In this document: positions 1 to 64,000 of the stretch, piece after piece
Numbering within the stretch: position 1 is the first letter of the stretch
Layout of the letters: every line of letters starts with the position of its first letter
Program-made: the position numbers and the translations under genes
Origin: Eledone cirrhosa
Lineage: Eukaryota
Assembly (NCBI GenBank): GCA_964016885.1
Contig: OZ024741.1
Span: 90,210,001-90,274,000, forward strand
Length of the DNA stretch: 64,000 nt
Reading direction: 5' to 3'
Notes under the pieces: model-generated
What the model saw: the letters and a program-made list of their open reading frames with translations, nothing else
What the model was told of the DNA's origin: nothing
Database searches by the model: none

Positions 1-814
<814 letters not shown>

Positions 815-978
815 ATTGTTATACTTTGGGAGGGTCATGTTGCCAATAAGAAACACACGCACCAGTTGCTTTCACTTCAATTTATTATATATTTATAATT
901 TTATAAATTTACAAATCTACAAACCTATAAATTTCTGGTTGGTTGGTTGGTTCCACAACCAGATAGTTGTTTATATAT

Positions 979-1023
979 AGTCATAGTCCTTTCGTCACAC
1001 ACTCTGTGACCTCTTCAGTGACT
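979..1023 (-). ncRNA. Minimal type I hammerhead ribozyme (PLE-A inverted pLTR)
   Basis: Reverse complement of the motif at 4714-4758. Confidence 0.8.
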
Positions 1024-1226
1024 GGGGATTCCTTTCTTTGTTTCTGTGCCTTTCCTTTCTTCTATCCTACGCCATTTTGTTTCTGTGTGTGTGTGTTGTG
1101 TGCTCAGTTTGCACATGCGCCACATCCGGGTGTCTGTGTGTGTTTGTGTTCATTTATCTATTTGTTTATTTATTTATTTATTTATTGGTTGTTTGTTCTA
1201 TGTGTGTGTGTGTTTTCATTTTGTCC

Positions 1227-1649
1227 TTAATTGTAAGTTGTGATGTTGCTGTTCCACTCATATTTTCTATTTAATTTTGGTTGTAATTCTTTTATGCTTA
1301 CTGCCTCTGTAATTTGCCTAAACATTGCGTCTTTTCTGTGTGTGGATTCTATTTTTATTTCTATGTTCTCCAATCTACCCCTGTGTTCCATCTCAGCATG
1401 TTGGTAGAGCACAGATGACTCCCCACTATCCCGAAGGTCCCGCCAGTGCTCACCCACCCGTTCCCCTACACTACGAGCCGTCTCACCCATGCACACCACA
1501 TTTCTGCTTCTACATTGTCCCTCAGTACATCCCATGCCATACACTACACCTCCAGTTTCACAGTCAATATGGGGGCTTATTTTACAGGTTATACATTTCC
1601 CATCTATACATGAGGGTCTTTGGAACGGGTATGTCTTGCTAATAAGTGC
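1227..1649 (-). pseudogene. Inverted duplicate of the PLE-A GIY-YIG endonuclease C-terminus
   Basis: The translation ALISKTYPFQRPSC...LNRKYEW is nearly identical to the C-terminus of ORF 3301-4512. Confidence 0.9.
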
Positions 1650-4512
1650 AATAGCAACATACCCAGAAACAACAACAACAGACACGCAGACACAAACAAC
1701 AATAACAACACACACAACAACGATAACACACACGGAGACAACAACAACACACGTCAACAACAACACACATCAACAACAACAACACACACGCATTCAATGC
1801 CTCTCACCACCACCACAATCTTAACAAACACACAGACACAGAAAACAAGTAATGACAGTAGCACAGAAATCAGAGAAATAAGGGAAAGTAATAAGATTAA
1901 AAGGAAAAGGAGATGGGAGACTAAGGACAAAGAGAATAACCAAGACGAACACACAGACACACAAAATAGGGTAGATAACAACATTGAGCCAGTGGAAAGA
2001 GACAGGAGTAATTATGAGAGACATAGAAACAACCATGAGGCTGTTGGTGGAAATAGAAATAGAAACAACACAACTAACAATAACAATAGCACTAGTACAC
2101 ATAACGCAGCAGCCTGGAACTCTCCGTTTTATAATCCCTCCGATAAATCATTCGACCTGCGACGAGTCCACGCCACGACTTTACCATTTAACAAACGCAC
2201 GCAGTTGCCGTCGCAGGTCGATGAACAAACAGAAGCACAATTTAGTATAGCTAAATCCGAACTTAGAAATATTATAGAACAGTATAGCAAGAAGCATAAT
2301 AGAATAGAGGCCCAGCAACTGGGAGAAAAATCTTCAAATGGCTTGCGTAAGCTCATGCAGCGCTCGCGTAATGGAGAGATAGCATGCTTTCCAACAGACA
2401 AGTCTGGCAGAATGTCGGTTGACAGCCTGCCAAACTACATCCAGGCAATGCAACCCCACATCACTAACACAAGAGAGGTAACACCACAGGAGCATGAGGA
2501 TAGAGAAAAAGCCCTCAATGCCCATATGGTGATGTGGACGAATATAATGCAGCCCAAAAAAGGACTGCCAACAACTTCCAGGCCTGGAACAATGACGTGC
2601 CGGCGTTGTATGGGCTTCGAAAAGACCATAAAACGGGCTGTGACCCTGTCGCGGGACCACCAACACGGCCAGTCTGTGGGGCTAACATTGCTAGTAACTA
2701 CAGACTGTCCTACTTCCTCTCCCTGATCATACGCCCCATCATTGAGATGTCCCCAGATGTATGTGACAGCACGGAGGACCTCCTCAGCAGAATCGGCGCG
2801 AGTAACCGATCTGGGGACCTAACAAACTGCATAATAGGCAGTATGGATGTTGTGTCCCTGTATCCATCTATTGACGTGGATTTTGCTGTGGAGAAATGCG
2901 TAGAAATGATCAGCGAGGGCAAGGTTGAGTTCCGTGGGATTGATACCAGTGAGCTGGGACTTCTGCTTAAGCTTGCCCATAGTAATGGTTGCCTAGACAC
3001 TTATGACCTTAGCAACCTGTGCCCTACAAGACCAGCAAGAGGCAGACCACCTAACATTGCCTCAATGGCCAAGAAAACCCGCACGGATAGATGGAGCGGG
3101 TGGACCAGAGCCATACGGACACCCGAGGACCACGATGAACTGAGGAAAATGATTGCACATGCGGTAGGGGCCAGCATAAAATTAAAATAAAAAATTAACC
3201 CTTAGGGAACATATATTTCAATTTTAATGGTAAAACATATGCCCAAGAGGAAGGAGCAGCCATTGGTGTTAGCATTGCAGGCGACATAGCTAACGTATTC
3301 ATGGTATGGTGGGACAGTGGACTTAAACAAAAACTTAAAGAACAATTAGAGGACAGCTTGGCCCTGATAATGTACTCCCGCTACGTAGATGATATAAACA
3401 TCGTAGTTAAGACACCCCCACTGGAGAACAGTCGGGAGCTGGAGAGGGGCACAGTGGAAGGCATCCAGCAAATAGCAAACTCCATCCACCAGAGCATTAG
3501 AGTTACTATAGACTACCCAAGTAGACACCCCAACCATCGATTACCTGTACTAGACACAGAGCTCTGGTTAGATACCATTAACAACCAAAAACAAATCCTC
3601 CATTCCCATTGTGCCAGACCCATGGCTTCCAGGCATCTGATCCACCGAAACTCGGCCATTTCGGACCATACCAAAATCAACATACTGATTGCGGATTTGG
3701 TACGGGTGATGAGAAATGTGTCCCGCATGTGCAACCCCGAAGAACTAGAGAGGCACATACAACACTTCATCCACCGTATGCAGTTCTCTGGCTACAATCA
3801 GAGAGATAGAATCAGAGTGTATAGAGGAGCCGGAGCCAAATGGGAAAAAATGGTAAATAATGACATGGGTGGGACCTGCCCCTTGTGTGGGAGCAAATTT
3901 TGGAATAGAGTGGAAGGAACTAGGAGCAAGGCCAATGGAATAAACTCATGGTATGATGGCAATAAATACCAGAGTGTAGTGTTCATCAATACAACCCCTA
4001 GAGGCGAACTAGCCTACAAATTTAGAAGGGCCCTAAATAAACATAGACTCAATATTAAGATGGTAGAAAGACCAGGTGCCTCCGTAGGGGCACTTATTAG
4101 CAATACATACCCGTTCCAAAGACCCTCATGTATAGATGGGAAATGTATAACCTGTAAAATAAGCCCCCATATTGACTGTGAAACTGGAGGTGTAGTGTAT
4201 GGCATGGGATGTACTGAGGGACAATGTAGAAGCAGAAATGTGGTGTGCATGGGTGAGACGGCTCGTAGTGTAGGGGAACGGGTGGGTGAGCACTGGCGGG
4301 ACCTTCGGGATAGTGGGGAGTCATCTGTGCTCTACCAACATGCTGAGATGGAACACAGGGGTAGATTGGAGAACATAGAAATAAAAATAGAATCCACACA
4401 CAGTAAAGATGCAATGTTTAGGCAAATTACAGAGGCAGTAAGCATAAAAAAATTACAACCAAAATTAAATAGAAAATATGAGTGGAACAGCAACATCACA
4501 ACTTACAATTAA
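1650..4512 (+). pseudogene. PLE-A RT/GIY-YIG ORF, disrupted
   Basis: Motifs PTDKSGR, PALYGLRKDHK, RPVCG, SMDVVSLYPSI, GAAIG, RYVDD, GETAR and LNRK.EW are present. There is a frameshift in an A-run near 2560 and a slippage duplication with a stop at about 3180-3197. YIG reads CMG. Confidence 0.9.
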
Positions 4513-4713
4513 GGACAAAATGAAAACACACACACACATAGAACAAACAACCAATAAATAAATAAATAAATAAACAAATAGATAAATGAACACAAACACA
4601 CACAGACACCCGGATGTGGCGCATGCGCAAACTGAGCACACAACACACACACAGAAACAAAATGGCGTAGGATAGAAGAAAGGAAAGGCACAGAAACAAA
4701 GAAAGGAATCCCC

Positions 4714-4758
4714 AGTCACTGAAGAGGTCACAGAGTGTGTGACGAAAGGACTATGACT
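4714..4758 (+). ncRNA. Minimal type I hammerhead ribozyme (PLE-A pLTR)
   Basis: AGTCA-CTGAAGA-G-GTCACA(GAGTG)TGTGAC-GAAA-GGAC-TA-TGACT: both core boxes, helix I and helix II are present. Confidence 0.8.
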
Positions 4759-5574
4759 ATATATAAACAACTATCTGGTTGTGGAACCAACCAACCAACC
4801 AGAAATTTATAGGTTTGTAGATTTGTAAATTTATAAAATTATAAATATATAATAAATTGAAGTGAAAGCAACTGGTGCGTGTGTTTCTTATTGGCAACAT
4901 GACCCTCCCAAAGTATAACAATATCGGTTTCAACACACGATTTCAGACAAAGAATCTTGCTAAACAAATTCAGCAACGAAATATATATATACGCATATAT
5001 ATATATATATGTTTATACGTGAATGTGCCGTGCGGGTGTAAAATATGTCATCAACTGCAAATCGCTTAATTCCTTTGAAATGTACTCCAAGGCAAGTATG
5101 AAATCCCCAGTCTTTCTCCTTCTCTGATCTCTCTCTCTCTCTCGCTCTCACACACACATATTCTTACATCCATACATATATAAACAAACATCACTTAAAA
5201 AGAATACGCTGTTAGATTCTCGTCTGAAATTGAACTCTTGCATTTCCTGCCGACATTTCAATTTCCTGCGAAATTGTAGGCCTTTACGTATGCAGTATAT
5301 TTATTTATATTGATTTGTGTTGGTATACCAGTGTTTATGTTTAAAATGCCAGATTGGCAGGAGGATATGTCGACGCCCGCAAGATTTATCTTCATCATAC
5401 CATTGAGAAACGTGTTCGATATGTATTCAAATAGACGAGGCATCATGGACAAGTGTTCTTTATCATAGTGACGGAGTGATCCAAGACTTGTTAAGAATCT
5501 GTATGGAAGTCTGTCAGATACATTGTACCTTTAATTCAGATATCCAGAATGGTAATCTTTAACGGAGCACCACA

Positions 5575-5845
<271 letters not shown>

Positions 5846-6066
5846 TATTGTTATATTTGGGGAGGGTCATATTTGCGTAATATTGCCAGAATTAATAACA
5901 GAACACACTCACTGTTTGGTTGGTTTTCGCTTCTCGCTGTCTTTTATATATATATATATCTGCGATCTAACTTACTCGGTCCTCAATGTTGCCATTGACT
6001 GACCGGCGGTCAAAAATAATACAGATACAATATAGACACAAACACATATATATAGTTTACATAATT

Positions 6067-6110
6067 TACATAAATCTTTCGTTGCACATCTGCAACATCG
6101 TCAGTGGTGT
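6067..6110 (-). ncRNA. Hammerhead motif (PLE-B left pLTR)
   Basis: Reverse complement of 10318-10362. Confidence 0.65.
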
Positions 6111-6379
6111 TATATTCATTGTTCCTCCTGTTGTGTTGTATGTCTACGCCATTTTTTTTTTTTTTTGTTCAGTCTGTCTATATATTTATTTATTTATTTG
6201 CTTGTTTGTTTATCTTATTTTATTTTGTCTTCTTTGCGCATGCGTTTGCGTGTGTGTATAGTGTTATGTGTGATGTGTGACTAGTGTGTATAGTGTTGTG
6301 TCTGCTGGGTGACTAGTGTGTGTTTATGTGCTTGTGTATGTATTTATTTATCTTATTTTATTTAATTTTATTTACTTAT

Positions 6380-8554
6380 TTATACTTCTCTTAGGTCAGT
6401 GTTGTTTGTTTGGGTGTTGTTGTTGTTCCACTCATTCTTTCTGTTTAGCTTTGGTCTTCTAATTTCTATTTCACTGGCCTCTCTGATTTGCCTATCTGCT
6501 GGGTCATTCCTATGTTTAGATATTATTCTAATTTCTATGTTGTCTATGTTACCGTCGTGTTGTTGTCTAGCATGTTCGTATAGTACTGACCCGTTTTTTC
6601 GTCCTTTTAGTTCCCCCCAGTGTTGGTCTATCCTTTCCCCTATGCTACGAGCTGTCTCACCTATGTATGTTGTTGTCATGTTTCTGCAAGTACCCTCTGT
6701 ACATCTTATGCTATAGACTACGTTTCTGGTTTTACAGTTTATCCGGGGGTTCACCTTACATATGATACATTTCCTATTAGTACAGTGGGTTTTCTTAAAA
6801 GGGTAGGTTTTGCTGATCAGGGATTTTATGGTGGTTCCTGGCTTTTCTACCACCTTAATTTTTAAGTGGGTCTTTCTCAGGGCCTTTCTACACTGGTTAG
6901 CTAATTTCCCTCCAGGGGTGGCATCCACAAACATGACACTCTGATATCTCTGGTTGTCGTACCATGATGTGGCCTTCCCTATCTTATGTCTAGCCCTATC
7001 TAAGCTATTCCATGATTTGCTCCTGTATAGTGGGCAAATTCCTTTCATGTCCAGTTCTATGAGGGTCTTATACTTTTCCATGGCTCCTTCGTATACTCTG
7101 ACTCTGTCTCTTTGGTTGTAGCCAGAGAACTGCATGCGGTTGATGAAGTGTTGGATGTGTCCTTCCATTTCTGTTGGGTCGCACATGCTGGACACATTCT
7201 TCATCACTCGTACCAAATCTGCGATCAGAATATTAAACTTAGCACTACTGGACATTGCTGAGTTTTTGAGTATCAGGTATTTGGAGGCCATGGGTTTAGC
7301 ATAGTGTGAGTGGAGAATTTGGGCTCTCTCGTCTATAGTGTTAATCCAGAGTTCTGTGTCTAATACAGGTAGTCTATTGTTAGGGTGTTTGGAAGGGAAG
7401 TCTATAGTTACAGTTATACTCTGGTGTATGGAATTAGCTATCTGCTGGATGCTTTCCATCGTGCTACGTTCTAAATCAAACTTGTTAGTGCTCTCTAGTG
7501 GGGGTGTTCTTATAACTATATTGATATCGTCTACATAACGAGAGTACATGATGAGGTCTATGGAGTTTTCATTAAGGAGATCTTTAAGTCTCCTTTCCCA
7601 CCATACCATGAAAAGGTTGGCAACATCACCAGCTATGCTGACGCCGATGGCTGCTCCCTCATTTTGGGTGTAGATTTTCTCATTGAACTTAAATATGTGG
7701 CCCTTTAGGGTAGTTTTGATACTAGCCTCTATTGCATGTGCGACCATTTTTCTTACCTGATCAGTGTTTTGGGGGGTCCGTATAGCTTTGGTCCACCCAA
7801 TCCACCTTCCTATGGGAGTCTTTTTAGCCATTGAGGTTATGGTGGGGGGTCTACCTCTTATAGGTCTACTAGGGCAGAAACATCTAAGGTCATGGCTGTC
7901 TAGGTAGTCAGTGTCGTAGGTAAGTCTAAGTAGGAGGCCCAGTTCGTCTGTGTCGACGTCGCAGAACTCCACCTCACTCTCAATGATCATCTCCACACAT
8001 CTTTTCACAGCAAAATCAATGTTAATGGATGGGTACAGTGACACCACATCCATGCTGCCTATTATGCAGTTGGATAGGCTCCTGTTTTTGTTGCACTCAC
8101 TGATTCTGCTGAGGAGGTCCTCTGTACTTTCACATACATCTGGGGACATCTTGATTATGGGGCGTATAACCATTGAGAGGAAGTAGGAGATCCTGTAGTT
8201 GCTAGCTATATTAGCTCCGCATACGGGTCTTGTTGGTGGTCCTGTTGTCGGGTCGTCGACTGTCTTGTGGTCTTTGCGGAGCCCATACAAGGGTGGTATG
8301 CCATTGTTAGACGCCTGGAAGTTGTTGGCAGTGCGTCTGCTTGGCTTTAGGATGTCAGTCCACATCATCATGTGAGCGTTGAGGATTTTTTCTCTCCCAT
8401 CGTGTGTTAGTTGTGCAACTTCGCTCGTGTTGGTGATGTGGGGTTGCATTGCCTCGATGTAGTTCGGCATGCTATCTATTGACATCCTACCAGACTTATC
8501 TGTGGGTAGACACACTACCTCACCATCCCTTGTGCGCTGCCTGAGGCTAACCAA
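6380..8554 (-). CDS. PLE-B reverse transcriptase plus GIY-YIG endonuclease (5'-truncated, uninterrupted 724 aa)
   Basis: PTDKSGR, PPLYGLRKDHK, SMDVVSLYPSI, RYVDD, HYAKPMAS, Cys-rich linker, VVYSIRC...YIGETAR, LNRKNEW. Confidence 0.93.
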   Translation of the reverse strand: MVSLRQRTRDGEVVCLPTDKSGRMSIDSMPNYIEAMQPHITNTSEVAQLTHDGREKILNAHMMMWTDILKPSRRTANNFQASNNGIPPLYGLRKDHKTVDDPTTGPPTRPVCGANIASNYRISYFLSMVIRPIIKMSPDVCESTEDLLSRISECNKNRSLSNCIIGSMDVVSLYPSINIDFAVKRCVEMIIESEVEFCDVDTDELGLLLRLTYDTDYLDSHDLRCFCPSRPIRGRPPTITSMAKKTPIGRWIGWTKAIRTPQNTDQVRKMVAHAIEASIKTTLKGHIFKFNEKIYTQNEGAAIGVSIAGDVANLFMVWWERRLKDLLNENSIDLIMYSRYVDDINIVIRTPPLESTNKFDLERSTMESIQQIANSIHQSITVTIDFPSKHPNNRLPVLDTELWINTIDERAQILHSHYAKPMASKYLILKNSAMSSSAKFNILIADLVRVMKNVSSMCDPTEMEGHIQHFINRMQFSGYNQRDRVRVYEGAMEKYKTLIELDMKGICPLYRSKSWNSLDRARHKIGKATSWYDNQRYQSVMFVDATPGGKLANQCRKALRKTHLKIKVVEKPGTTIKSLISKTYPFKKTHCTNRKCIICKVNPRINCKTRNVVYSIRCTEGTCRNMTTTYIGETARSIGERIDQHWGELKGRKNGSVLYEHARQQHDGNIDNIEIRIISKHRNDPADRQIREASEIEIRRPKLNRKNEWNNNNTQTNNTDLREV

Positions 8555-8598
8555 GCCCTAGTAGACCTATAAGAGGTAGACCCCCCACCATAACCTCA

Positions 8599-10050
8599 AT
8601 GGCTAAAAAGACTCCCATAGGAAGGTGGATTGGGTGGACCAAAGCTATACGGACCCCCCAAAACACTGATCAGGTAAGAAAAATGGTCGCACATGCAATA
8701 GGGGCTAGTATCAAAACTACCCTAAAGGGCCACATATTTAAGTTCAATGAGAAAATCTACACCCAAAATGAGGGAGCAGCCATCGGCGTCAGCATAGCTG
8801 GTGATGTTGCCAACCTTTTCATGGTATGGTGGGAAAGGAGACTTAAAGATCTCCTTAATGAAAACTCCATAGACCTCATCATGTACTCTCGTTATGTAGA
8901 CGATATCAATATAGTTATAAGAACACCCCCACTAGAGAGCAATAACAAGTTTGATTTAGAACGTAGCACGATGGAAAGCATCCAGCAGATAGCTAATTCC
9001 ATACACCAGAGTATAACTGTAACTATAGACTTCCCTTCCAAACACCCTAACAATAGACTACCTGTATTAGACACAGAACTCTGGATTAACACTATAGACG
9101 AGAGAGCCCAAATTCTCCACTCACACTATGCTAAACCCATGGCCTCCAAATACCTGATACTCAAAAACTCAGCAATGTCCAGTAGTGCTAAGTTTAATAT
9201 TCTGATCGCAGATTTGGTACGAGTGATGAAGAATGTGTCCAGCATGTGCGACCCAACAGAAATGGAAGGACACATCCAACACTTCATCAACCGCATGCAG
9301 TTCTCTGGCTACAACCAAAGAGACAGAGTCAGAGTATACGAAGGAGCCATGGAAAAGTATAAGACCCTCATAGAACTGGACATGAAAGGAATTTGCCCAC
9401 TATACAGGAGCAAATCATGGAATAGCTTAGATAGGGCTAGACATAAGATAGGGAAGGCCACATCATGGTACGACAACCAGAGATATCAGAGTGTCATGTT
9501 TGTGGATGCCACCCCTGGAGGGAAATTAGCTAACCAGTGTAGAAAGGCCCTGAGAAAGACCCACTTAAAAATTAAGGTGGTAGAAAAGCCAGGAACCACC
9601 ATAAAATCCCTGATCAGCAAAACCTACCCTTTTAAGAAAACCCACTGTACTAATAGGAAATGTATCATATGTAAGGTGAACCCCCGGATAAACTGTAAAA
9701 CCAGAAACGTAGTCTATAGCATAAGATGTACAGAGGGTACTTGCAGAAACATGACAACAACATACATAGGTGAGACAGCTCGTAGCATAGGTGAAAGGAT
9801 AGACCAACACTGGGGGGAACTAAAAGGACGAAAAAACGGGTCAGTACTATACGAACATGCTAGACAACAACACGACGGTAACATAGACAACATAGAAATT
9901 AGAATAATATCTAAACATAGGAATGACCCAGCAGATAGGCAAATCAGAGAGGCCAGTGAAATAGAAATTAGAAGACCAAAGCTAAACAGAAAGAATGAGT
10001 GGAACAACAACAACACCCAAACAAACAACACTGACCTAAGAGAAGTATAA
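8599..10050 (+). CDS. PLE-B RT C-terminal half plus GIY-YIG endonuclease (5'-truncated)
   Basis: 483 aa, differing from the minus-strand copy at only two visible residues. Confidence 0.9.
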   Translation: MAKKTPIGRWIGWTKAIRTPQNTDQVRKMVAHAIGASIKTTLKGHIFKFNEKIYTQNEGAAIGVSIAGDVANLFMVWWERRLKDLLNENSIDLIMYSRYVDDINIVIRTPPLESNNKFDLERSTMESIQQIANSIHQSITVTIDFPSKHPNNRLPVLDTELWINTIDERAQILHSHYAKPMASKYLILKNSAMSSSAKFNILIADLVRVMKNVSSMCDPTEMEGHIQHFINRMQFSGYNQRDRVRVYEGAMEKYKTLIELDMKGICPLYRSKSWNSLDRARHKIGKATSWYDNQRYQSVMFVDATPGGKLANQCRKALRKTHLKIKVVEKPGTTIKSLISKTYPFKKTHCTNRKCIICKVNPRINCKTRNVVYSIRCTEGTCRNMTTTYIGETARSIGERIDQHWGELKGRKNGSVLYEHARQQHDGNIDNIEIRIISKHRNDPADRQIREASEIEIRRPKLNRKNEWNNNNTQTNNTDLREV

Positions 10051-10317
10051 ATAAGTAAATAAAATAAAATAAAATAAGATAAATAAATACATACACAAGC
10101 ACATAAACACACACTAGTCACCCAGCAGACACAACACTATGCACACTAGTCACACATCACACATAACACTATACACACACGCAAACGCATGCGCAAAGAA
10201 GACAAAATAAAATAAGATAAACAAACAAGCAAATAAATAAATAAATATATAGACAGACTGAACAAAAAAAAAAAAAATGGCGTAGACATACAACACAACA
10301 GCAGGAACAATGAATAT

Positions 10318-10362
10318 AACACCACTGACGATGTTGCAGATGTGCAACGAAAGATTTATGTA
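10318..10362 (+). ncRNA. Hammerhead motif (PLE-B right pLTR)
   Basis: CTGACGA-T-GTTGCA(GATG)TGCAAC-GAAA-GATT-TA. Helix I is weak. Confidence 0.65.
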
Positions 10363-11144
10363 AATTATGTAAACTATATATATGTGTTTGTGTCTATATT
10401 GTATCTGTATTATTTTTGACCGCCGGTCAGTCAATGGCAACATTGAGGACCGAGTAAGTTAGATCGCAGATATATATATATAAAAGACAACGAGAAGCGA
10501 AAACCAACCAAACAGTGAGTGTGTTCTGTTATTAATTCTGGCAATATTACGCAAATATGACCCTCCCCAAATATAACAATATCTGTTTCGACACACGATT
10601 TCATATAAAAAACCTCGCAAAACTAATTCATCGCCGCTATATATATCTATATATATATATATATCTATATATATCTATATATATCTATATATCTATATAT
10701 ATATCTATATATATCTATATATATATACATATATATATAAATATAAATTAGCGAGAATCGTATTTCGGCTATTGGAAATTAGCGAAAAACAACTTCCGAG
10801 ATGTGTGACAAGCGCTCCATAGAAGCTAGTGAACTAGAGCTACAACATAAGTTAAAAGGCCAAACACACTGAGACGATGGTTAAACCATTATCCGCACAG
10901 CCACAGAAACGACCAAGTAATTTGGGTCAAACAAATAAAATATGATAGAAAATTATACCCGGACCTCTGGAAGGTTGGTACCACTGCTAGTATATGAATA
11001 TAAGATATAAATATATATAAGATATAAATATATATATATATTTATTTATTTATATATATATTTATTTATATATTTATATATTTTATATATTATATATATA
11101 TTTATATATTTACATCTTATATATTTATATCTTATATTCATATA

Positions 11145-13485: not shown

Positions 13486-14390
13486 CTACATTTTAAATTT
13501 AAATTTATATTTAAACGTTGAGTTTAATCTATGTTTGCAACAACTGAATAAATTTGTCCGTAGGTTAAGGGAATTTTTAGATTTTAGTATAAAGAATATC
13601 TCCTCTGCGCAGAGGTCACATGTCTCAGAGGATGAATTAAAAGGAATCCCCCTTGAGACTATATTCCAAGCCGTCGAATATCTAACGTTATCTAGCTTAA
13701 GTTGCCAGAGTACGCCTGATAGTGCCGTTGAAGATTTTTTACTTGGATCTGTGAAAGAATTCTTGTGGTTATTATAGCGAAGTTTAAATTCCGTCGATGT
13801 GGAACCGACGTAGTTAAAAGAATTACAATTGTATACTATATTTTTAACTAAGCAGTTGTTATTTAACGGAAATTTAGATCTATCTCTACAGTTACATTTG
13901 TTAACTTGTATATTATTTATGCTATTATCAATAGGTTTTAAGTTCCTATTATTTATTCTATTAATATTTTGTGCTAAATTTTTGGTGGATGAGTAGGTTA
14001 ATTTAATTGTATGCCTATTGAAAATTGAGTGATACCTATGTGTTCTAGGGAAGCGATTATCAAGAGCTTTGAAAAATAATTTAGCGATGTGGGTTTTAAT
14101 GTTTAGTGAGAAGGGGGGGGGGGGCAAACCAAATTATGTTCCTAGTTCTATTTCTTTTTTGGCCTTTGGAATTATTGTAATGCTTTCTATTATAGTTGTT
14201 AATGTTGTTGCCGTAATTAAAAAAGTTGTTACTTTGTTTAGTTTGTCTATCATTATCTATGTACACAATCTTATCAGCATATCCTGCCCTAGCTAATGCT
14301 TCATTATAGTATTGGGCCTTTTCGTCGAAAATCTTTCTATTCGACGAGATCCTAGAGATACGTTTTTGAACTGAGTTTACTATAGTGGTT
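13486..14390 (-). pseudogene. PLE RT thumb plus GIY-YIG endonuclease fragment
   Basis: YYNEALARAGY, WFAPPP-FS (frameshift in a C-run), IFNRHTIKLTYS, CNCR, IVY...YVGST, CDLCAEE. Confidence 0.88.
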
Positions 14391-14604
14391 TTTCTCACAC
14401 ATATATATATATATATACAATATATAAATACATAAATATATATATATATATACAATATATAAATACATATGTATAATATATATATATTTATATATTATAC
14501 ATATGTATTTATATGTAAAAATATATATATATTTATGTATTTATATATTGTATATATATATATATATGTGTGAGAAAAACCACAGACCCTCCATCTCAAC
14601 TCTA

Positions 14605-24887: not shown

Positions 24888-25585
24888 CTAAAGGAATAAG
24901 GGTGGGGAGTTCAGGCCGGGGGGAGTGTGGGTCTGTAAGATGAAGATGGTTCTTTGTTCGACTCTGAGGAGATTGGCGGGTGTTCCGTGGCATTGGAGTA
25001 GGCCACAGACTGTGAGATGGCGTGCGGAATGTCCAGGGGCACCAAAGTGGCGGGCGATGGGGGAACTACCACCGAGACGAATATCCCGGAGGTGCTCAGT
25101 GAATCGGTCCGCCAGGCGACGTCCCGTCTGTCCGACGTAAGTCGCGCTGGACTCCGTGCAGCGAAGTCCGTAGACTAGCTTGGAGGAGGTGCAGCGGAAG
25201 GCATGCCGGACAGAGAGAGAGTGGCCGTTGGGACCCTGGAAGGTGGTGGTGTTGGTGATGTGGGGACAGGTGTTGCAGCGGGGCCTAGAATAGGGAAAGG
25301 AACCGGGGGGAGGGAAGAGCGTGGGTTGGGGGGTAGGGAGCTGTGGACGAGGAGGGTGCGGAGATTGCGTGCGCGTTTGAAGGAGGGGAGTGGTGGGGTT
25401 GGGAAGATGTGGGAGGTGGAGGGGTCGGACTGGAGGCGTCGGAAGAGGCGGTGGAGGGGTGGTAGGTGATGGGGAAGGGGAGACGGTGGGTGGGTGTGCG
25501 GTGGGGTGAGGGTGGTGGAGCGGTGGACAGCACGGGCGCGGGTGAGATCGGTGTGGACGAGAGAGGGGGGTAACCTCTGCGGATG
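24888..25585 (-). pseudogene. Neptune-type GIY-YIG endonuclease and linker (absent from the ORF track)
   Basis: Manual translation: PITYHP...RARNLRTLLVHS...RPRCNTCPHI...FRCTSSKLVYGLRC...YVGQTGRRLADRFTEH...PIARHF...EQRTIFILQTHTPPGLN. Confidence 0.88.
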
Positions 25586-25768
25586 ATGGCTGCCAACTCG
25601 TTTTCGAGTACGGCCACTACTTTATATCCATGTAGGAGAATGTGTGTCTCTATATATATATATATACACACATGTGGTTACTTGATAAAATACATTTAGA
25701 GATAAAAGGAAGGCACAAACAAGTGACAGTCCCCTCCCCTCTTCAGTTGTCTGCTGGAGGTCACCGAC

Positions 25769-26459: not shown

Positions 26460-28458
26460 ATATTTGGGGAGGGTCATATTGTTATAATATTGTCAGAAAT
26501 AATAGGTTACTATTTTCTATTGTATACTTTCTTAAAGTATAAAAATATTGAATATAGAAATAAGTAGTGTTACTACAACAACGATGACCTTATATTTAAT
26601 TACTCGTAATTGGCCTATTTACAGAATATTTCCTTTGCCCCCAAAGTTACTTTATCTGGCAATCAATGTTTATTTTTGACCAACGGTTAAAAATAAAGAT
26701 ATAAATATATATATATATATATATAGTCTATCAAAGTTCTTTCGTCACACATCTGTGACATCATCAGTGGTACTATTATGTTTCCTCCCGTTGTATTGTA
26801 ATGCCTACGCTATTTTTATTTTGTTTATTTATTTATTTATATTTCCCTTAGGTCAGTATTGTTTATTTGGGTATGGTTGTTATTATTCCATTCGTCTTTT
26901 CTGTTCAACTTTGGTTTTCTTAGTTCTATCTCCGATTTGCCTACCTGTTAAGTAATTTCTATGCTTAGATTTTAATTTCTATGTTGTCTATATTACCATC
27001 ATGTCTTTGTCTGGCGTGTTCATATAGTACTGAACCGGTTTTGTCCTTTTTAGTTCCCCCAAGTGCTGGTCTAGTCTTTCTCCTATGCTTCGTCATGTTT
27101 CTGCAAGTACCCTCTGTACATCTTATGCTATAGGCTACATTTCTAGTTTTACAATTTATCTGGGGGTTCATTCTACATATAACACATTTCTTATTCGTAC
27201 AGTGGGTTTTCTTTCCGATCAGGGATTTTATGGTAGTTCCTGGCTTTTCTACCACTTTAATCTTTAGCTGGGCCTTTCTACATTGCTTAGCTAATTTCCC
27301 TCCAGGGATAGCATCCACGAACATGACACTCTGGTATCTTTGGTTGTCGTACCATGAAGTGGATTTCTTTATCTTATGTTTAGTCCTATCTAAGCTATTC
27401 CATGATTTTCCCCTGTATAATGGGCAAATTCCTTTCGTGACCATTTCTATGAGGGTCTTATATTTCTCCGTGGCTCCTTTGTATACTCTGATTCTGTCTC
27501 TTTGGTTGTTGCCAGAGAACTGCATTTGGTTGATGAAGTGTTGGATGTCTCTTTCCATTTCAGTTGGGTCGCACATGCAGGATACATTCTTCATCACTCG
27601 TACCAAGTCAGCGATCAGAATATTAAACTTAGCACTATTGGACATTGCTGAGTTTTTGAGTATCAGGTATTTGGAGGCCATGGGTTTAGCATAGTGTGAG
27701 TGGAGACTTTGGCCCCTCTCGTTTATAGTGTTTAACCGGTGTTCCGTGTCTAATGCTGGTACTCTATTGTTAGGGTGTTTGGAAGGATAGTCAATAGTTT
27801 CACTTATATTTTGGTGTATGTAGTTAGCTATCTGCTGGATGCTCTCCATTGTGCTATTTTCTAGGTTCAGGTTTATTGGTACTCTCTTGTGGGGGTGTTC
27901 TTATTACTATATTAATATCGTCTACGTAACGAGAGTACATAACGAGGGCTATGGAGATTTCTTTTAGGAGTTCTCTGAGTCTCCTTTCCCACCACACCAT
28001 AAATAGATTGGCAACATCGCCAGCTATGCTGACGCCAATGGCTGCCCTCTCATTCTGGGTGTAGATTTTTTTCATTAAATTTAAACATATGGCTCTTTAG
28101 GGTAGTTTTAATACTAGCCCCTATTGGATGTGCGACCATTTTTCTCACCTGGTCGTTGTTTTGGGGTGTCCGTATGGCTTCGGTACATCCATTCCATCTT
28201 CCTATGGGAGTCTTTTTAGCCATTGAGGTTATGGTGGGGGGTTTACCTCTTATAGGTCTATTGAGGCAGAAACAGCTAAGGTCATAATTATCTAAGTATT
28301 CAGTGTCATAAGTAAGTTTAAATAGGAGGTCCAGTTCATATGTGTCGACGACGCAGAACTCCACCCCACTCTCACTGATTATTTCCACACATTTTCCACA
28401 GCAAAATCAATGTCAATGGATGGGTACAGGGATACAACATCCATACTGCCTATTATGC
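26454..28458 (-). mobile_element. Degenerate PLE related to PLE-B
   Basis: Frameshifted RT/EN pieces (28050-28388, 27854-28075, 26965-27849) homologous to PLE-B, with the same ATTGTTATATTTGGGGAGGGTCAT terminus. Confidence 0.9.
26723..26776 (-). ncRNA. Hammerhead motif (PLE-A/B family)
   Basis: CTGATGA-T-GTCACA(GATG)TGTGAC-GAAA-GAAC-TT. Confidence 0.7.
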
Positions 28459-28479: not shown

Positions 28480-29095
28480 GTCTCTCTATCTGCCTTTTCC
28501 TTATGCATTTCCAAACGGCTCGACCAAATATTTCAAGGTAATAGTATTATACCCCAGGAGTAACATGTAATTTTTATTTTCATTTGGATTAAAACAATTT
28601 AATACTTTATCTAAAATAATCTACTATAGACAAGTAAACGGATATTTTATAACACGACGACGACGTCACATTTTGTGTATGAGTGTGTATGTATCTGTGA
28701 GTGTGTGTATGTGTCTGTGAGTGGGTTTGCGCGTTCATTACGTACCTTACGCCTTAGCAAGTTCCCTGTTAGAGCCAGTTTTGCTATGACCATACATAAA
28801 GTTCAGGCTCAGAGTTTCAAAGTTGTAGGATTGAATACAAGAGAATCGGTTTTTGCCCACGGACAGTTGTATGTAGGTTGTTCACAGGGAGAAACACCTA
28901 GAAATCTTCATATACTACTCACGAACAGTAAAACGAAGAATCCAGTGTAACTGGAAGATTTTTTTATTGTTTATTTTTTGTAACTCACTCACCGCGGTCT
29001 CGCTTCATACTGTAAAGCAGACAAACATCCAATACAGTCATTTTCTCTTCTACCTGTCTTATCTTATCATTTGTTTACCCTGGTGCATCAGCTAG
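28480..29095 (+). mobile_element. Helitron remnant with PIF1-helicase C-terminal fragment
   Basis: FPVRASFAMTIHKVQAQS..VGL....VFAHGQLYVGCS (28755-28950), and a CTAG|T 3' end at 29092-29096. Confidence 0.8.
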
Positions 29096-35277: not shown

Positions 35278-36000
35278 ATAAATGATATAGATATCCCAGT
35301 AGGTACTAGGTACCCACGGAAATATATATGGTGTCTATAATAGTGGTTGTTCTATGGTACTAATTTGATATACCAGAACTGTAAATATGAGCGGAACAAG
35401 TAAACATTAAACAATCTTTCAAATAAATTAAAATACGATTTAAATATTTACCTCTATGGCACTAGAAGAGGTAAATATTTAAATCGTAATTTAATTTATT
35501 TAAAAGATTGTTTAATGCTTACTTGTTCCGCTCATATTTACAGTTCTGGTATATCAAATTAGTACCATAGAACAACCACTATTATAGACACCATATATAT
35601 TTCCGTGGGTACCTAGTACCTACTGGGATATCTATATCATTTATCTAATTCTCCTTAATGTAGAGAAAAAAATGCTGTATCATGCTGCTATTTCTAGCAG
35701 CATGAAATATCAGAGAGTCTATAATTCCCGCTTTTTCTAACGGTCCAATAAGTGTGTGGGTCATTTTAACGGCTTGATTCATTCACTGGGCAGAGGGTGA
35801 TATATCTACATCTATACGGACTTATGTCTAGTAGATTTGGAAAAGCAATCTGAAGAGCTATATCTTTCCATTTGAAATCCTCTGAATTTCCAATCTTTTG
35901 ATAAGCGAAACCGTCGGTCATGGCACTAGAAGAGGTAAATATTTAAATCGTATTTTGATTTATTTGAAAGATTGTTTAATGTTTACTTGTTCCGCTCATA
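35278..36000 (+). mobile_element. Retrozyme-like 464 nt HHR unit with direct terminal repeat and inverted arm
   Basis: Direct repeats 35456-35536 and 35920-36000. Inverted arm 35278-35455 versus 35467-35644. TA flanks. Confidence 0.8.
35845..35924 (+). ncRNA. Type I hammerhead with large loop II
   Basis: GCAAT-CTGAAGA-GCTATATC...GATAAGC-GAAA-CCGTCGG-TC-ATGGC. Confidence 0.7.
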
Positions 36001-36024
36001 TATATATATATATATATATATATT

Positions 36025-37725
36025 TAAGCCACACGGCTTATCCGTGACGATAGATCCTAGCACTAAGACGGTGAATTCCCTGGACGTTACCCTGGAAATG
36101 ACTACGGGCATCCACCGACCTTATTTCAAGCCCAATGAGAACCTGCAATATGTGAACAGGCAATCGAACCACCCCAAGTCAGTAGAAGCAATAGTTAAAG
36201 GGGTATCTAAACGCGTATCCACCCTGTCGGCCAACGCAGACGTGTTCAAACACCACGCCGACTATTATAATGAGGCACTGCGCAGGGCCGGTTACACAGA
36301 TAGCATAGTGTATACCACAGACAGGGAAGAGCCTAGCGCCGAGGCATGTGGATACGGCAATAGGTAGAAGAAATGACCCGGTACTAGCCTCCAAGAACAC
36401 GAGTAGTAACACAGTTCACCTTAAAGACACAGGACCCACAATAGGACAGACGAAGACACACACGGGCGCTGGATCACCCAGTACACGTAGGCAAAAGCCC
36501 GGCACGCACACCACATGCGTCGCGGTAACTAGAACTAGGGACAGGGTAACGACAAGTACGACCGTGGCACCCGTTATAGGAAACACCCGACCTGGTAGCA
36601 GTGGTATAGCCCCGACAACAGCACCACATAGCATTAAAGAGACTAACAGTGGAGCCGACAATACAAAACGGAATACCTTAGTAAGTGAAAGGCATAACCA
36701 TGACGCCCACAGCAGACATATAGATAGAGGCAACATAGGGGACGTAATAATGGGCGGGCAAAACCCGAGACGGACATCAGACCCAAGACACACTCACACG
36801 ACTACACACACACGAAAGAACAAGACTAGATCTAAGGCCGTTACATGGTTTAACGCGTCGTATTCTAAGCATGTACGCAGGAATGTGCCAGGGCTTTATT
36901 TCCAAGCGTTAGACGAGTGTTTCCCGCCGTCGAACAAATACCACAAGATTTTCAACCGCCACACGGTGAAGTTTTCCTTCCCCACAGGACCTGACATGGC
37001 CGACTACATGGCCAAAACCAACGCGGTAAAGATGGGGAATCTCGACCGTCAACCGCAGTGGCAGAATGACCGTCCATCGGATCTCGGAGGGCCCCTCGAA
37101 GACCGGTTTCCAACAACAACCCGGCCCTCGCGGCTGCCGCCACGCCCGCGAAAGGTGATACAATCCAACGCCGGGAGGGAACGAGTGGCGGAGGGGAGAC
37201 GACCTTGCCGGCGGAACAACACCCTGAGAATCAGGAGAGGGACCTAGCAGATCAAGGACCAGGCGTCCGAAATGAACAAAATAACAATGTAACTGCAGAG
37301 CGGGCACCCAGTGCCCCCTGCAGGGAAGATGTCTGACGAAGGGCCTGGTATATAAATGTGTGGTTAGCACGCACAATATAAAGCGCACCTACATCGGCGC
37401 AACATCCACGAGCTTTAAATCGCGGATGTATAACCACACGAACTCTTTCAAGGACCGCAGTAAGAGGCAGTCTACTAGGCTAACGGACCTGGTGTGGGAC
37501 TTGAAAGACAAGGGCACCCCGTACGCCCTTGAATGGAGTATCGTTCTGCACGCGAATGCATACTCGGCTAAGAGTAGAAAGTGTAGCCTATGCCTATACG
37601 AGGCCATGGAAATAGTCAGACTGAAGGATGATGCGGTCAACCTGAAATCGGAAATAATCATGACGTGCAGACACCAGAGAAGGTGCACACTCTCAGCATG
37701 GAATCCACCGGGAATCCTAGGCTAA
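36025..37725 (+). pseudogene. PLE RT thumb plus GIY-YIG fragment (WFN / CNC..CPL type), frameshifted
   Basis: LDVTL, YVNRQSNHP, YYNEALRRAGY, TWFNASYS, KIFNRHTVKFSF, CNCRAGTQCPLQGRCL, LVY...YIGAT, CSLCLYE. Confidence 0.88.
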
Positions 37726-40135: not shown

Positions 40136-40138
<3 letters not shown>

Positions 40139-41742
40139 TGTACCAGGAAGAGGCACCACTGATGCCCTCTTCATTGTGAGGCAGTTACAGGAAAAGTACC
40201 TAGCTAAAAGTAAGCCACTCTACCTGGCATTCGTCGATCTTGAGAAAGCCTTTGACAGAGTTCCACGTGCTATAATCTGGTGGACTCTTAGAAAACTAGG
40301 AGTAGATGAATGGCTTGTGAAAGCTGTACAAGCCATGTATAGGGGAGCAGTCAGCAAAGTTAGGATTAGCAATGAGTATAGCGAGGAATTTAGCGTACAG
40401 GTCGGTGTCCACCAGGGCTCTGTTCTTAGCCCTCTCCTGTTCATCATAGTCCTGCAAGCAATAATGGAGGAGCTTAAGACTGGATGTCCATGGGAACTCC
40501 TGTATGCAGATGACCTCGCACTTATAGCTGAGTCTATGGTAGAACTAGAGAAGAAATTCCAAACTTGGAAGCAGGGACTAGAAAGAAAGGGTCTCAAAGT
40601 CAATCTGACAAAGACTAAGGTCCTTGTAAGTAGACGAGAAAACAGAACTCAGATTCCCTCAGGGAAATGGCCTTGCTCAGTATGTAGGAAAGGTGTAGGT
40701 AGGAACTCCATTCTCTGCCCCAAATGCAAACAATGGGTACACAAGAGATGTAGCGGGATCTCAGGAAGCTTAATTAAGAATGTAGGCTTCACATGTAGCA
40801 GCTGTGCTGGAACAGCAAACAACCACAGGAAACAAGTATCACCAATCTCTGGGAGGGCTCTGTAGAAACAGTAGACAGCTTCTGCTACCTAGGTGACCGA
40901 ATTAGCAGCGGAGGTGGGTGTTCAGAAAGTACAATAACTAGGGTAAGAACGGGATGGAAGAAGTTCAGGGAGCTACTGCCACTGCTAGCTGCAAAAGGCT
41001 TTTCCCTCAAAATGAAAGGCAGACTGTATGATGCGTGTATACGAACAGCAATGTTACACGGTAGTGAGACCTGGGCGCTGAAGGTGGAAGACTTACGTAG
41101 ATTAGAAAGAAACGAAGCCTGCATGCTCCGATGGATGTGTAATAGTAATATACGCGAACTGCAAAGCATAAATGAATTGAGAGAGAGACTGAGCATAAAA
41201 GGAATCAAATGCTGTGTGTAGGAGAGGCGGTTGCGTTGGTATGGACATGTGATGCGTATGACGGAATACAGCAGCATAAAAAGGTGCAGAGCACTAGAAG
41301 TCAATGGAAACCGCGGAGTGGTGAGACCCAAGAAGACCTGGGATGAGGTGATAAAAGCCGACCTTACCCAATTACACCTCTCAAAGGCGATGACACGCCT
41401 ACAGAGTACCCGACCTCCCATGGATACAAGCCGAAACTGAAGCTTATAGACAATATGCCCCCACACCCTCCCACTGCAAAGCGGTCGTGGAGGTGCCACG
41501 GCAAAAAAGCACCCAGTCCACACTGTAAAGTGGACGTGTAGGCGCCACGGAAAAAAAGCACCCAGCACTCACTGTAAATGAGGTTGGTGTTAGGAAGGGC
41601 ATCCAGCTGTAGAAATCAAGCCAGAATCAGTTCCCGTATGAGCAAGACAAGGTCAGCCGACCAGACACTGCCCACAACAGGACAACCCGTCTAACCCATG
41701 CTAGCTGGAAGAACGGACGTAAAACGGTGATGATGATGATGA

Positions 41743-62667: not shown

Positions 62668-64000
62668 CAATGCTTTCTTTATTAATCACAAGGGTTTACA
62701 CAAAGTAAGACATTAAGGGCAGTACAGGACAATACAGGACGGTACAAATGGGCATTTCTGCGTCTAAAAAAAATACAAAAACAGAGGATGTAACAAAAAA
62801 AACAATGAAAAATTCCCCAATAGGGGGGAGACTTCCGAGGGCCATCGTGGAGAAAGCCCATTAAAAAAGCCGCGGTGACCCTGACCACCAGGGCAAGTGC
62901 CCTCTCCCACTTTTCCACCTTCAATTTACAGGCACTTACTCAGAGTAGGCCCATTTACTCGGGCCATTCTTGCCTCTCTCACCCATCTTTCAACAAAATG
63001 CTGGGAAGAGAGCACTTCTCTCTAATTTTCCTTTTCAAATGAAATTTGAAAAAGTTAATCAGGGCATCACCGAAGAGGCAAGTGCTCATCTTCAGCCCTT
63101 TCAGACGCGTCCACCATACTATCTCTTTTGCCATGGCCACCAGACAGATAAAAACTTCACGATGGCCTCAGCTGATAGCCGGATCCGTCCTTCACGCGAC
63201 AGCAGGTGTTCAACATAAACCCACAAGACAGAAATGCTCGGACACTGGAAGAGTGCGTGCAGGACGGTTTCGTCGCCCTGTGCGCATCTCAGACATGCCC
63301 GGCTGACGGCACTTCCATGCCTGTAGAGTTTATCCCGAACTGGCAAAGCCCCTCGGTAGTACTGCCAGGCCAGGGATTTCTGGAAGTTGTCCATGACCCC
63401 GGCCCGAAAGTTCTTCCGAAGAGATTGGCTAGTTGATTTTCGTCGACGCCTAGAGTTTCCCCAAGTACGTCGTCGCTCTTTCCCTCCACTAATCCTCTAT
63501 AGAAATCCAAGGTGGAGTTTCCACCGATCACATTGCCCGACTGGTCGAGGGCTGTGAGCGCCTGAAGACATTCCAGTCTCCAAGCGCTCCCTCTCGGTCT
63601 TCGCTTGACCCAGGACTACAGCTCCGTCAAGGAGACGAGCTGGGGAAAGACGCATCTAGCAAACGGTGACCACACCTGATCACCGTCGAGGAAGAGGTGA
63701 TGTCGTCGTAGCCTGAGCGCGTGTCTGCGCATCATCAGCCACGGCATGCCCATCCCTCCACGTAGCGGGTGTTGACAGCAGATGGACCGCCTTACCATCG
63801 GAGCGCGTCCCTTCCACAAAAAGCGAAGGAGCAAACGCTCCAGCGCAGTCGTGCGAGGCTTAGGACAAGTCACGACGGTCAGGCGGTAGTAGATGACTGA
63901 CGCGATGTACGCATTCGCCAACTCCGCTCGACCTTCCAGGGATAGCTTCCTCTCTGCCCATTTCTGGGTGAGAGAAGCCACCCTGCTCGTCACCTCGTCC
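62668..64000 (-). mobile_element. L1/Tx1-clade LINE 3' portion (RT C-terminus plus zinc finger), runs off the window
   Basis: W..RKLSLEGRA...FLWKG...P.RGGMG and CLRC....ETVLHALFQCP, with frameshifts. Confidence 0.88.

Follow-up and report, generated by a model that had tools for sequence, protein, structure and literature searches.

Clustered A-to-G changes in a Penelope-like element of Eledone cirrhosa point to retrotransposition of ADAR-edited RNA

A Penelope-like element insertion (PLE-A) in the genome of Eledone cirrhosa was found to carry a patchy zone of A>G hypermutation on its sense strand, and this copy very probably derives from a sense RNA that was hyperedited by ADAR and then retrotransposed in the germline. 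The strand specificity, neighbour context and clustering of the changes, their recurrence at other loci and their mirroring in inverted arms are all consistent with a sense RNA that was edited before being reverse-transcribed, and lend support to the proposal, made in an initial annotation of this DNA, that an edited transcript had been retrotransposed. The window analysed is a stretch of 64,000 nt (contig OZ024741.1, positions 90,210,001 to 90,274,000), and its own numbering is used below.

The PLE-A insertion and its A-to-G changes

PLE-A is a head-to-head insertion inside a (TA)n tract, with the microsatellite target present on the left flank (1-812) and again after about 4980. A short inverted arm (813-1649, minus strand; element positions 4090-4924) faces the long, or body, arm (1649-4924, plus strand), which on the evidence of its ORFs and family alignments carries a reverse transcriptase (RT) followed at the C-terminus by a GIY-YIG-type endonuclease. 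The body is slightly 5'-truncated; family copies are 92 to 99% identical to it and extend further 5'. The match between the arms stops at 4924, and a 3' tail follows on the long arm only (4925-4980, plus strand). A similar tail likewise follows PLE-B, the second such element in the window.

The motifs read in the ORFs have the Neptune-type order, an RT and then a C-terminal GIY-YIG endonuclease with CCHH and the R, H, E and N residues. The Pfam RVT_1 profile matched the elements below the cut-off only (E 0.011 and 1e-4), the Pfam GIY-YIG profile did not match the PLE endonuclease, and Atlas entries that resemble the C-terminus of PLE-B at 0.96 have GIY-YIG in 13 to 18% of their members. The endonuclease is preceded in the PLE-A ORF by CIDGKCITC, an instance of the CX2-5CxxC linker that is described as a feature of EN+ Penelope-like elements (PMC8557442). 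Neptune-type elements have inverted or tandem terminal arms, a one-arm tail and an AT-rich target, and PLE-A, with inverted arms, agrees with them. It resembles the EN+ Neptune-type elements of PMC8557442, PMC3846280 and PMC11167929 in its RT with a GIY-YIG-type domain at the C-terminus, cysteine linker, inverted arms, tail and AT-rich target. Judged by these motifs and this layout, PLE-A is a Penelope-like (Neptune-type) retrotransposon, and its insertion is young.

The initial annotation measured PLE-A against PLE-B and placed the changes at 2640-4365. PLE-B is only 73-75% identical and belongs to a different family, so the column majority of PLE-A's own family (29 loci, then 58) was taken as the yardstick. 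From this family consensus a spectrum was tabulated in which, against 58 loci, 93 of the 1,284 majority-A columns are A>G in the window copy while T>C is found at 0 of 621 (Fisher p=8e-17). There are 11 other changes to set against the 93, namely 3 G>A, 8 transversions and no C>T, and the sense-strand G>A signature of APOBEC type is thus not seen. The changes are confined largely to one zone (2918-4368, plus strand), where 90 of the 543 A of the family have become G, compared with 2 of 481 in 1649-2917 and 1 of 159 in 4369-4924 (low-complexity sequence at 4512-4700 masked). The best family matches reach 91-92% identity for the edited stretch and 99% for the unedited 5' part. The three A>G outside the zone recur in other copies (5/33, 7/58 and 9/154 arms) and are probably family variants, which makes 2918-4368 the true edited span in place of the one first given.

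Within this zone the patchiness that had been reported is real, as none of 2,000 permutations was as clustered. The earlier hand counts are exact: 13 A and 40 G in 4241-4320, and 34 A and 22 G in the PLE-B stretch at 9758-9837. For the family of PLE-A itself, the counts in 4241-4320 are 32 A and 21 G. On three points at which the proposal could have failed, the family has the A alleles, A>G is in excess and G is depleted at the 5' neighbour position.

The edited codons give 58 amino-acid changes and 17 silent ones. Edits are dense in the endonuclease core (4174-4251, plus strand), where a codon-by-codon count against the own family gives N>D, K>E, R>G, N>G, S>G, I>M and R>G, and where YIG has become CMG, with the tyrosine replaced by cysteine. 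The YIG>CMG change, the IDCETGGVVYGMGC changes, HCARP and CPLCG, all listed in the initial annotation, are A>G against the own family as well. A few of its residue pairs read differently, PLE-B having served as the yardstick (against the own family, the change at 3448 is N>G and that at 2987 is S>G), but their direction stands. Two further lesions of the copy are of a kind other than A>G. The frame is shifted by a 1-nt deletion close to 2558 (2555-2560, plus strand), the extra base being present in 43 family alignments, and the ORF is broken near 3186 by a 10-nt A/T insertion with stop codons (3178-3198, plus strand) that is missing from all 45 covering family alignments. Loss of the endonuclease through editing, as the initial annotation has it, would therefore not be the sole lesion of this copy, as these two frame breaks are unrelated to editing.

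Hypermutated copies elsewhere in the genome

The copies of these elements were screened for A>G clusters with motifs tolerant of A>G. The first screen required G at the TAG site at 4201 and gave 32 matches, against 6,272 for the same motif with A; 19 of the 32 came from 17 hypermutated loci and the other 13 were ordinary single changes. A second screen, at site 4186, gave 26 matches, 13 of them from 11 hypermutated loci, 10 of which were already known. The third, at site 4251, added one locus with 14 A>G and 0 T>C (L200) and a weak case in which A>G makes up 5 of 7 changes (L201), together with a locus of the PLE-B family (L199). In L098/L099 the edits, 22 A>G with 0 T>C, fall in non-coding sequence of the 3' part. 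In total there are 20 firm hypermutated loci in the PLE-A family, from at least two subfamilies and spread over at least nine contigs, and one in the PLE-B family. The latter (L199; C3:93726700-93727700) has 33 A>G, in a 5' T/A context, against a single T>C, and was found in PLE-B family screens that gave 0 of 13 at one site and 1 of 5 at another. The editing process is not restricted to one family. These screens detect only copies that match exact motifs of 24-35 letters, so older edited copies are missed. The 5' half was screened once, at low power, with 3 matches, none of them clearly hypermutated. The idea that editing always stops near 4370 on the 3' side was considered and rejected, since other loci are edited to 4500-4850.

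When 16 loci were pooled, with 271 columns variable among unedited copies removed, there were 1,172 A>G against 141 other changes, including 24 G>A, 24 C>T and 11 T>C. Individual loci have up to about 150 edits. The edited sites of these loci overlap only as common hot spots would lead them to (Jaccard median 0.22, maximum 0.59, 120 pairs), and the loci are apparently separate events.

Unedited copies and the opposite strand served as controls. A T>C motif at the adjacent base, 4185, gave 20 matches, each with 1-6 T>C and none T>C hypermutated. In 176 kb of background copies there are 217 A>G, 120 T>C, 234 G>A and 204 C>T; the A content of the family is about 1.8 times its T content, and the A>G to T>C imbalance of the background is no greater than base composition gives. 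Among 90 position-ordered loci with A at 4201, clusters numbered one for A>G, none for T>C, a weak one for G>A and none for C>T. Adding L066, from the same interval, gives about 2 edited loci in 93. At site 4201 itself the prevalence is 19 of 6,304 arm matches (0.3%), which is a lower bound, and so roughly 0.3-2% of family copies are hypermutated. In one otherwise ordinary copy (L229 4229-7488), six A>G fall within 17 nt at element positions 2052-2068, perhaps a case of light local editing.

The preference for a 5' T or A, to which the initial annotation had drawn attention, is borne out. In the window copy the edited fractions by 5' neighbour are T 34/132, A 46/183, C 6/121 and G 5/111 (p=6e-9), or 25% after T or A compared with 5% after C or G. 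A 3' G is also favoured, with 30/122 edited against 11-16% for other bases (p=0.03). In the 16 pooled loci the rates by 5' base are T 0.44, A 0.34, C 0.16 and G 0.09, and the rate with a 3' G is 0.39 against 0.23-0.27; in simple numbers the most frequent 3' base is A (427/1,168), while per opportunity G ranks highest. The depletion of G upstream and its enrichment downstream match the published ADAR hyper-editing motif (PMC4365171). Most vertebrates favour G at the 3' neighbour, while in invertebrates Porath 2017 (PMC5625713) reports that the base enriched downstream is A, not G. Deduced from this mutation signature, the enzyme is likely to be an ADAR.

In the pooled loci editing is commonest at TA steps, as would be expected if duplex DNA had been hypermutated at TpA after insertion. 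Such a process predicts A>G together with T>C on one strand, however, and T>C is absent. In addition, AA steps in the window copy have an edited fraction close to that of TA steps (46/183 and 34/132), and the neighbouring PLE-B copy is unaffected, with 4 A>G and 5 T>C against its family. TpA-directed hypermutation is hardly conceivable as the source.

Inverted arms and the timing of the changes

Within the range of the window copy's short arm there are 38 G alleles, and this arm bears every one, 37 of them unambiguously, with the 38th, at 4090, being a 1-nt overlap at the junction. The two arms differ at 5 private sites and none of these is A>G. With every A>G of this range common to both arms and the other differences private, the A>G changes must predate the duplication of the arm and the others must be later. 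The same is seen more widely. In six loci with two arms (the window copy, L066, L081, L084/L216, L092 and L098), 258 of 266 edits are common to both arms, far above what two independently edited RNAs would give. The A>G changes arose before integration. The shared sites indicate that both arms derive from a single edited template molecule and, if the changes are RNA edits, they favour the sense strand as that template. Editing of the window locus's own hairpin in situ was rejected as a source, as it would not mirror sites across the arms and the edits reach 1.1 kb beyond the paired part.

An artefact of assembly or polishing can be given next to no weight. The G alleles of the window copy are absent among the matches listed for four other sequencing runs, from other samples, as an artefact would have it; those matches read the family A, which confirms polarity only. 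Whichever contig strand the element lies on, the edits nevertheless track its sense strand, and inverted arms mirror them; they are found at 20 loci on at least nine contigs, and the arms hold private mutations other than A>G that resemble ageing. At window positions 4238-4242, two contigs of low depth in one run (X1) have G at 4238, an edited site elsewhere. They may represent an edited copy from a different sample, and are too thin for counting.

It is quite improbable that an adenine deaminase acted on DNA, or on an RNA:DNA hybrid, at integration and not on free RNA. In model hybrids ADARs can edit the DNA strand (PMC12925331), and the signature gives the chemistry and not the substrate. 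The DNA strand of a hybrid would be the antisense cDNA, though, and its editing would read as T>C on the sense strand, where the window copy has 0 of 621 and the pooled loci have 11 against 1,172 A>G. The presence of the same sites in both arms also argues against it. Biased dNTPs can cause hypermutagenesis too, and misincorporation by the RT under a skewed pool could generate runs of A>G that would likewise be strand-specific and pre-integration. This has a very slight probability, as the five-fold 5' neighbour bias and the 3' G bias are ADAR-like, the edited and unedited zones are sharply bounded, and, had the arms been copied separately, their errors would not agree at 258 of 266 sites.

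Retrotransposition of an ADAR-hyperedited sense RNA thus remains the preferred reading, and bears on how the second arm is made. Slightly more probably than not, one RNA was copied from both nicked target strands. A template switch onto the new DNA is possible though doubtful, and later gene conversion is unlikely because the arms retain private differences. For head-to-head inversions an antisense template with self-priming has been proposed (PMC3846280), and the PLE-A edits provide a probe of this proposal; in the literature searched, no edited genomic copies of EN+ Penelope-like elements were found. In vitro, an anole PLE protein is described as cleaving and extending both target strands, with hammerhead cleavage not required (PMC11167929). 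One locus, L092/L093 (C22:15914700-15917200), is a perfect palindrome whose two arms stop alike at 3976, agree in 78 edits and have 0 differences, and it is either very young or homogenised.

Edited arms are also more 5'-truncated than others, with a median 5' end at 3,974 (22 arms) against 3,491 (102 unselected arms; Mann-Whitney p=4e-4), in a comparison that includes the weak case L201 and has ends censored at 2,690, checked by three-letter alignment. Editing thus probably shortens copies as well. Cleavage of inosine-rich RNA or stalling of the RT could account for this. That the RT simply stops at inosine was tried and set aside as a post hoc lead only, since at long-arm ends A is not over-represented at the first base left uncopied. 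The short arms of the window copy, L066 and L081 end immediately next to an edited base, and two further short arms end within two bases of one. The junction at window position 1649 adjoins a run of four edited bases, 4087-4090.

Near the 3' end of the element there is a motif, picked out by eye, of CTGAAGA ... GAAA around a predicted 6-bp stem (4719-4747, plus strand), which is hammerhead-like. The fold of its predicted stem is not significant (z -0.13), and a scan with Rfam gave no hammerhead match, only below-threshold miRNA matches on (TA)n. This core is intact in the window copy and edited in four loci (L066, L085, L092 and L098), in both arms where both are present. That four loci integrated with an altered core is in line with the in vitro data of PMC11167929.

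Source of the duplex, related systems and neighbouring elements

In the proposed route, sense PLE RNA that is partly double-stranded would have A converted to inosine by ADAR, and the edited RNA would then be reverse-transcribed in the germline, the PLE RT reading inosine as G and fixing about 90 of the changes. A domain search of the genome gave matches to the adenosine-deaminase domain PF02137 at four loci, one of which matches human ADAR2 at E=8e-80 and retains the catalytic motifs HAE, PCGDAR and SCSDK. The other three, at C1:146.4 Mb, C1:320.7 Mb and on C25, are presumably a multi-exon ADAR-like gene, an ADAT-like exon and a divergent member, respectively. Of the four loci (L184-L195), the ADAR2-like one (C6) was the only one compared with solved structures.

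The duplex would probably be the hairpin formed by read-through of a head-to-head donor, with an inverted arm covering the 3' half of the element; the unedited 5' 1.27 kb of the window copy would then be the loop. The head-to-head arrangement is found in 35 of the 90 position-ordered loci. Hairpin-type loci with long arms exist, with inverted arms from 3101, 3191 and 3314 (1.6-1.8 kb) beside near-full bodies, and these would be expected from their layout to fold back if read through. A hunt for the donor among 20 candidate stretches at 15 diagnostic columns gave no match to the window haplotype. A hairpin donor also predicts that some copies have T>C patches from its antisense arm, and none was seen in the 90 position-ordered loci or the T>C screen, which counts against the hairpin. 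With neither a donor match nor a T>C patch, the duplex may instead have been supplied by antisense RNA acting in trans.

More tentatively, ADAR may be a germline restriction factor of these elements that mutates and shortens about 1 in 100 new insertions. The edits would then be single-molecule barcodes, by which head-to-head insertions could be read as one sense RNA reverse-transcribed twice, once at each nicked strand of the target, for which the hammerhead would not have to be intact.

In the literature that was searched, no report of inherited ADAR-edited PLE copies was found, and nothing relevant was found in the part of PMC3197674 consulted. The general route is known outside Penelope-like elements, and the edits have value as a single-molecule barcode of PLE integration. 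The closest case is in cultured cells, where 3 of 235 L1-mediated pseudogene insertions are reported as ADAR-marked (PMC11702581), with clustered A>I of the RNA template fixed by retrotransposition as here. Those insertions are described as somatic and experimental, with edits limited to inverted Alu pairs of host mRNAs, whereas the present ones are in a genome assembly, affect the coding RNA of the element itself with up to about 150 edits, number at least 21 loci and depend on PLE machinery. L1 RNA in human (HeLa) cells is reportedly not edited by ADAR1 (PMC5224506), while Penelope RNA is heavily edited in a lizard (PMC5625713).

ADAR-type A>G has also passed through reverse transcription in avian retroviruses (Rous-associated virus as well as avian leukosis virus), where according to a review it is linked to an inverted repeat (PMC12925331). 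These are single isolates of infectious retroviruses, unlike the endogenous non-LTR family here, of which a measurable share is edited. The hyper-edited RNA clusters made by ADAR (PMC4365171, PMC5625713) are alike in density, clustering and neighbour motif but are transient, and the PLE-A changes sit in genomic DNA. APOBEC 'DNA editing' of LTR retrotransposons (PMC4866542) likewise leaves strand-biased clusters that are found against a family yardstick, though these are G>A through cytidine deamination of cDNA and not A>G in a PLE. The 123-genome screen for such footprints, as described there, covered LTR elements with a G-to-A filter and DNA transposons as control, and its 19 invertebrate genomes were at noise level (PMC4866542).

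The edited copies would provide an adenine counterpart of the APOBEC footprints, one that a G-to-A, LTR-only screen would not see, and a route from RNA edits to inherited DNA that can be counted here at 21 or more loci. They also allow the template strand, the origin of inverted arms, the need for a hammerhead and the curb on insertion length to be addressed from sequence alone, and keep a record of where and how strongly element RNA was double-stranded in germ cells.

Several other elements are present in the window. PLE-B (5846-10581) is also head-to-head, with its long arm on the minus strand and its short arm (8555-10581) on the plus strand, and the arms are about 100% identical. A third PLE copy, degenerate and related to PLE-B, lies at 26965-28406 (minus strand). 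Further PLE-like or GIY-YIG fragments are found at 13486-14494, 24888-25621 and 35939-37725, the last two with weak matches to Pfam GIY-YIG. A frameshifted RT with a PHD-like finger is present at 40137-41221 (plus strand; Pfam RVT_1 E 3e-26, PHD E 3e-7); a two-site editing pattern gave 0 matches in its family, which is uninformative as there is no denominator. The fragment at 28630-28950 (plus strand) resembles a PIF1-type helicase, and that at 63119-63999 (minus strand) a non-LTR ORF2.
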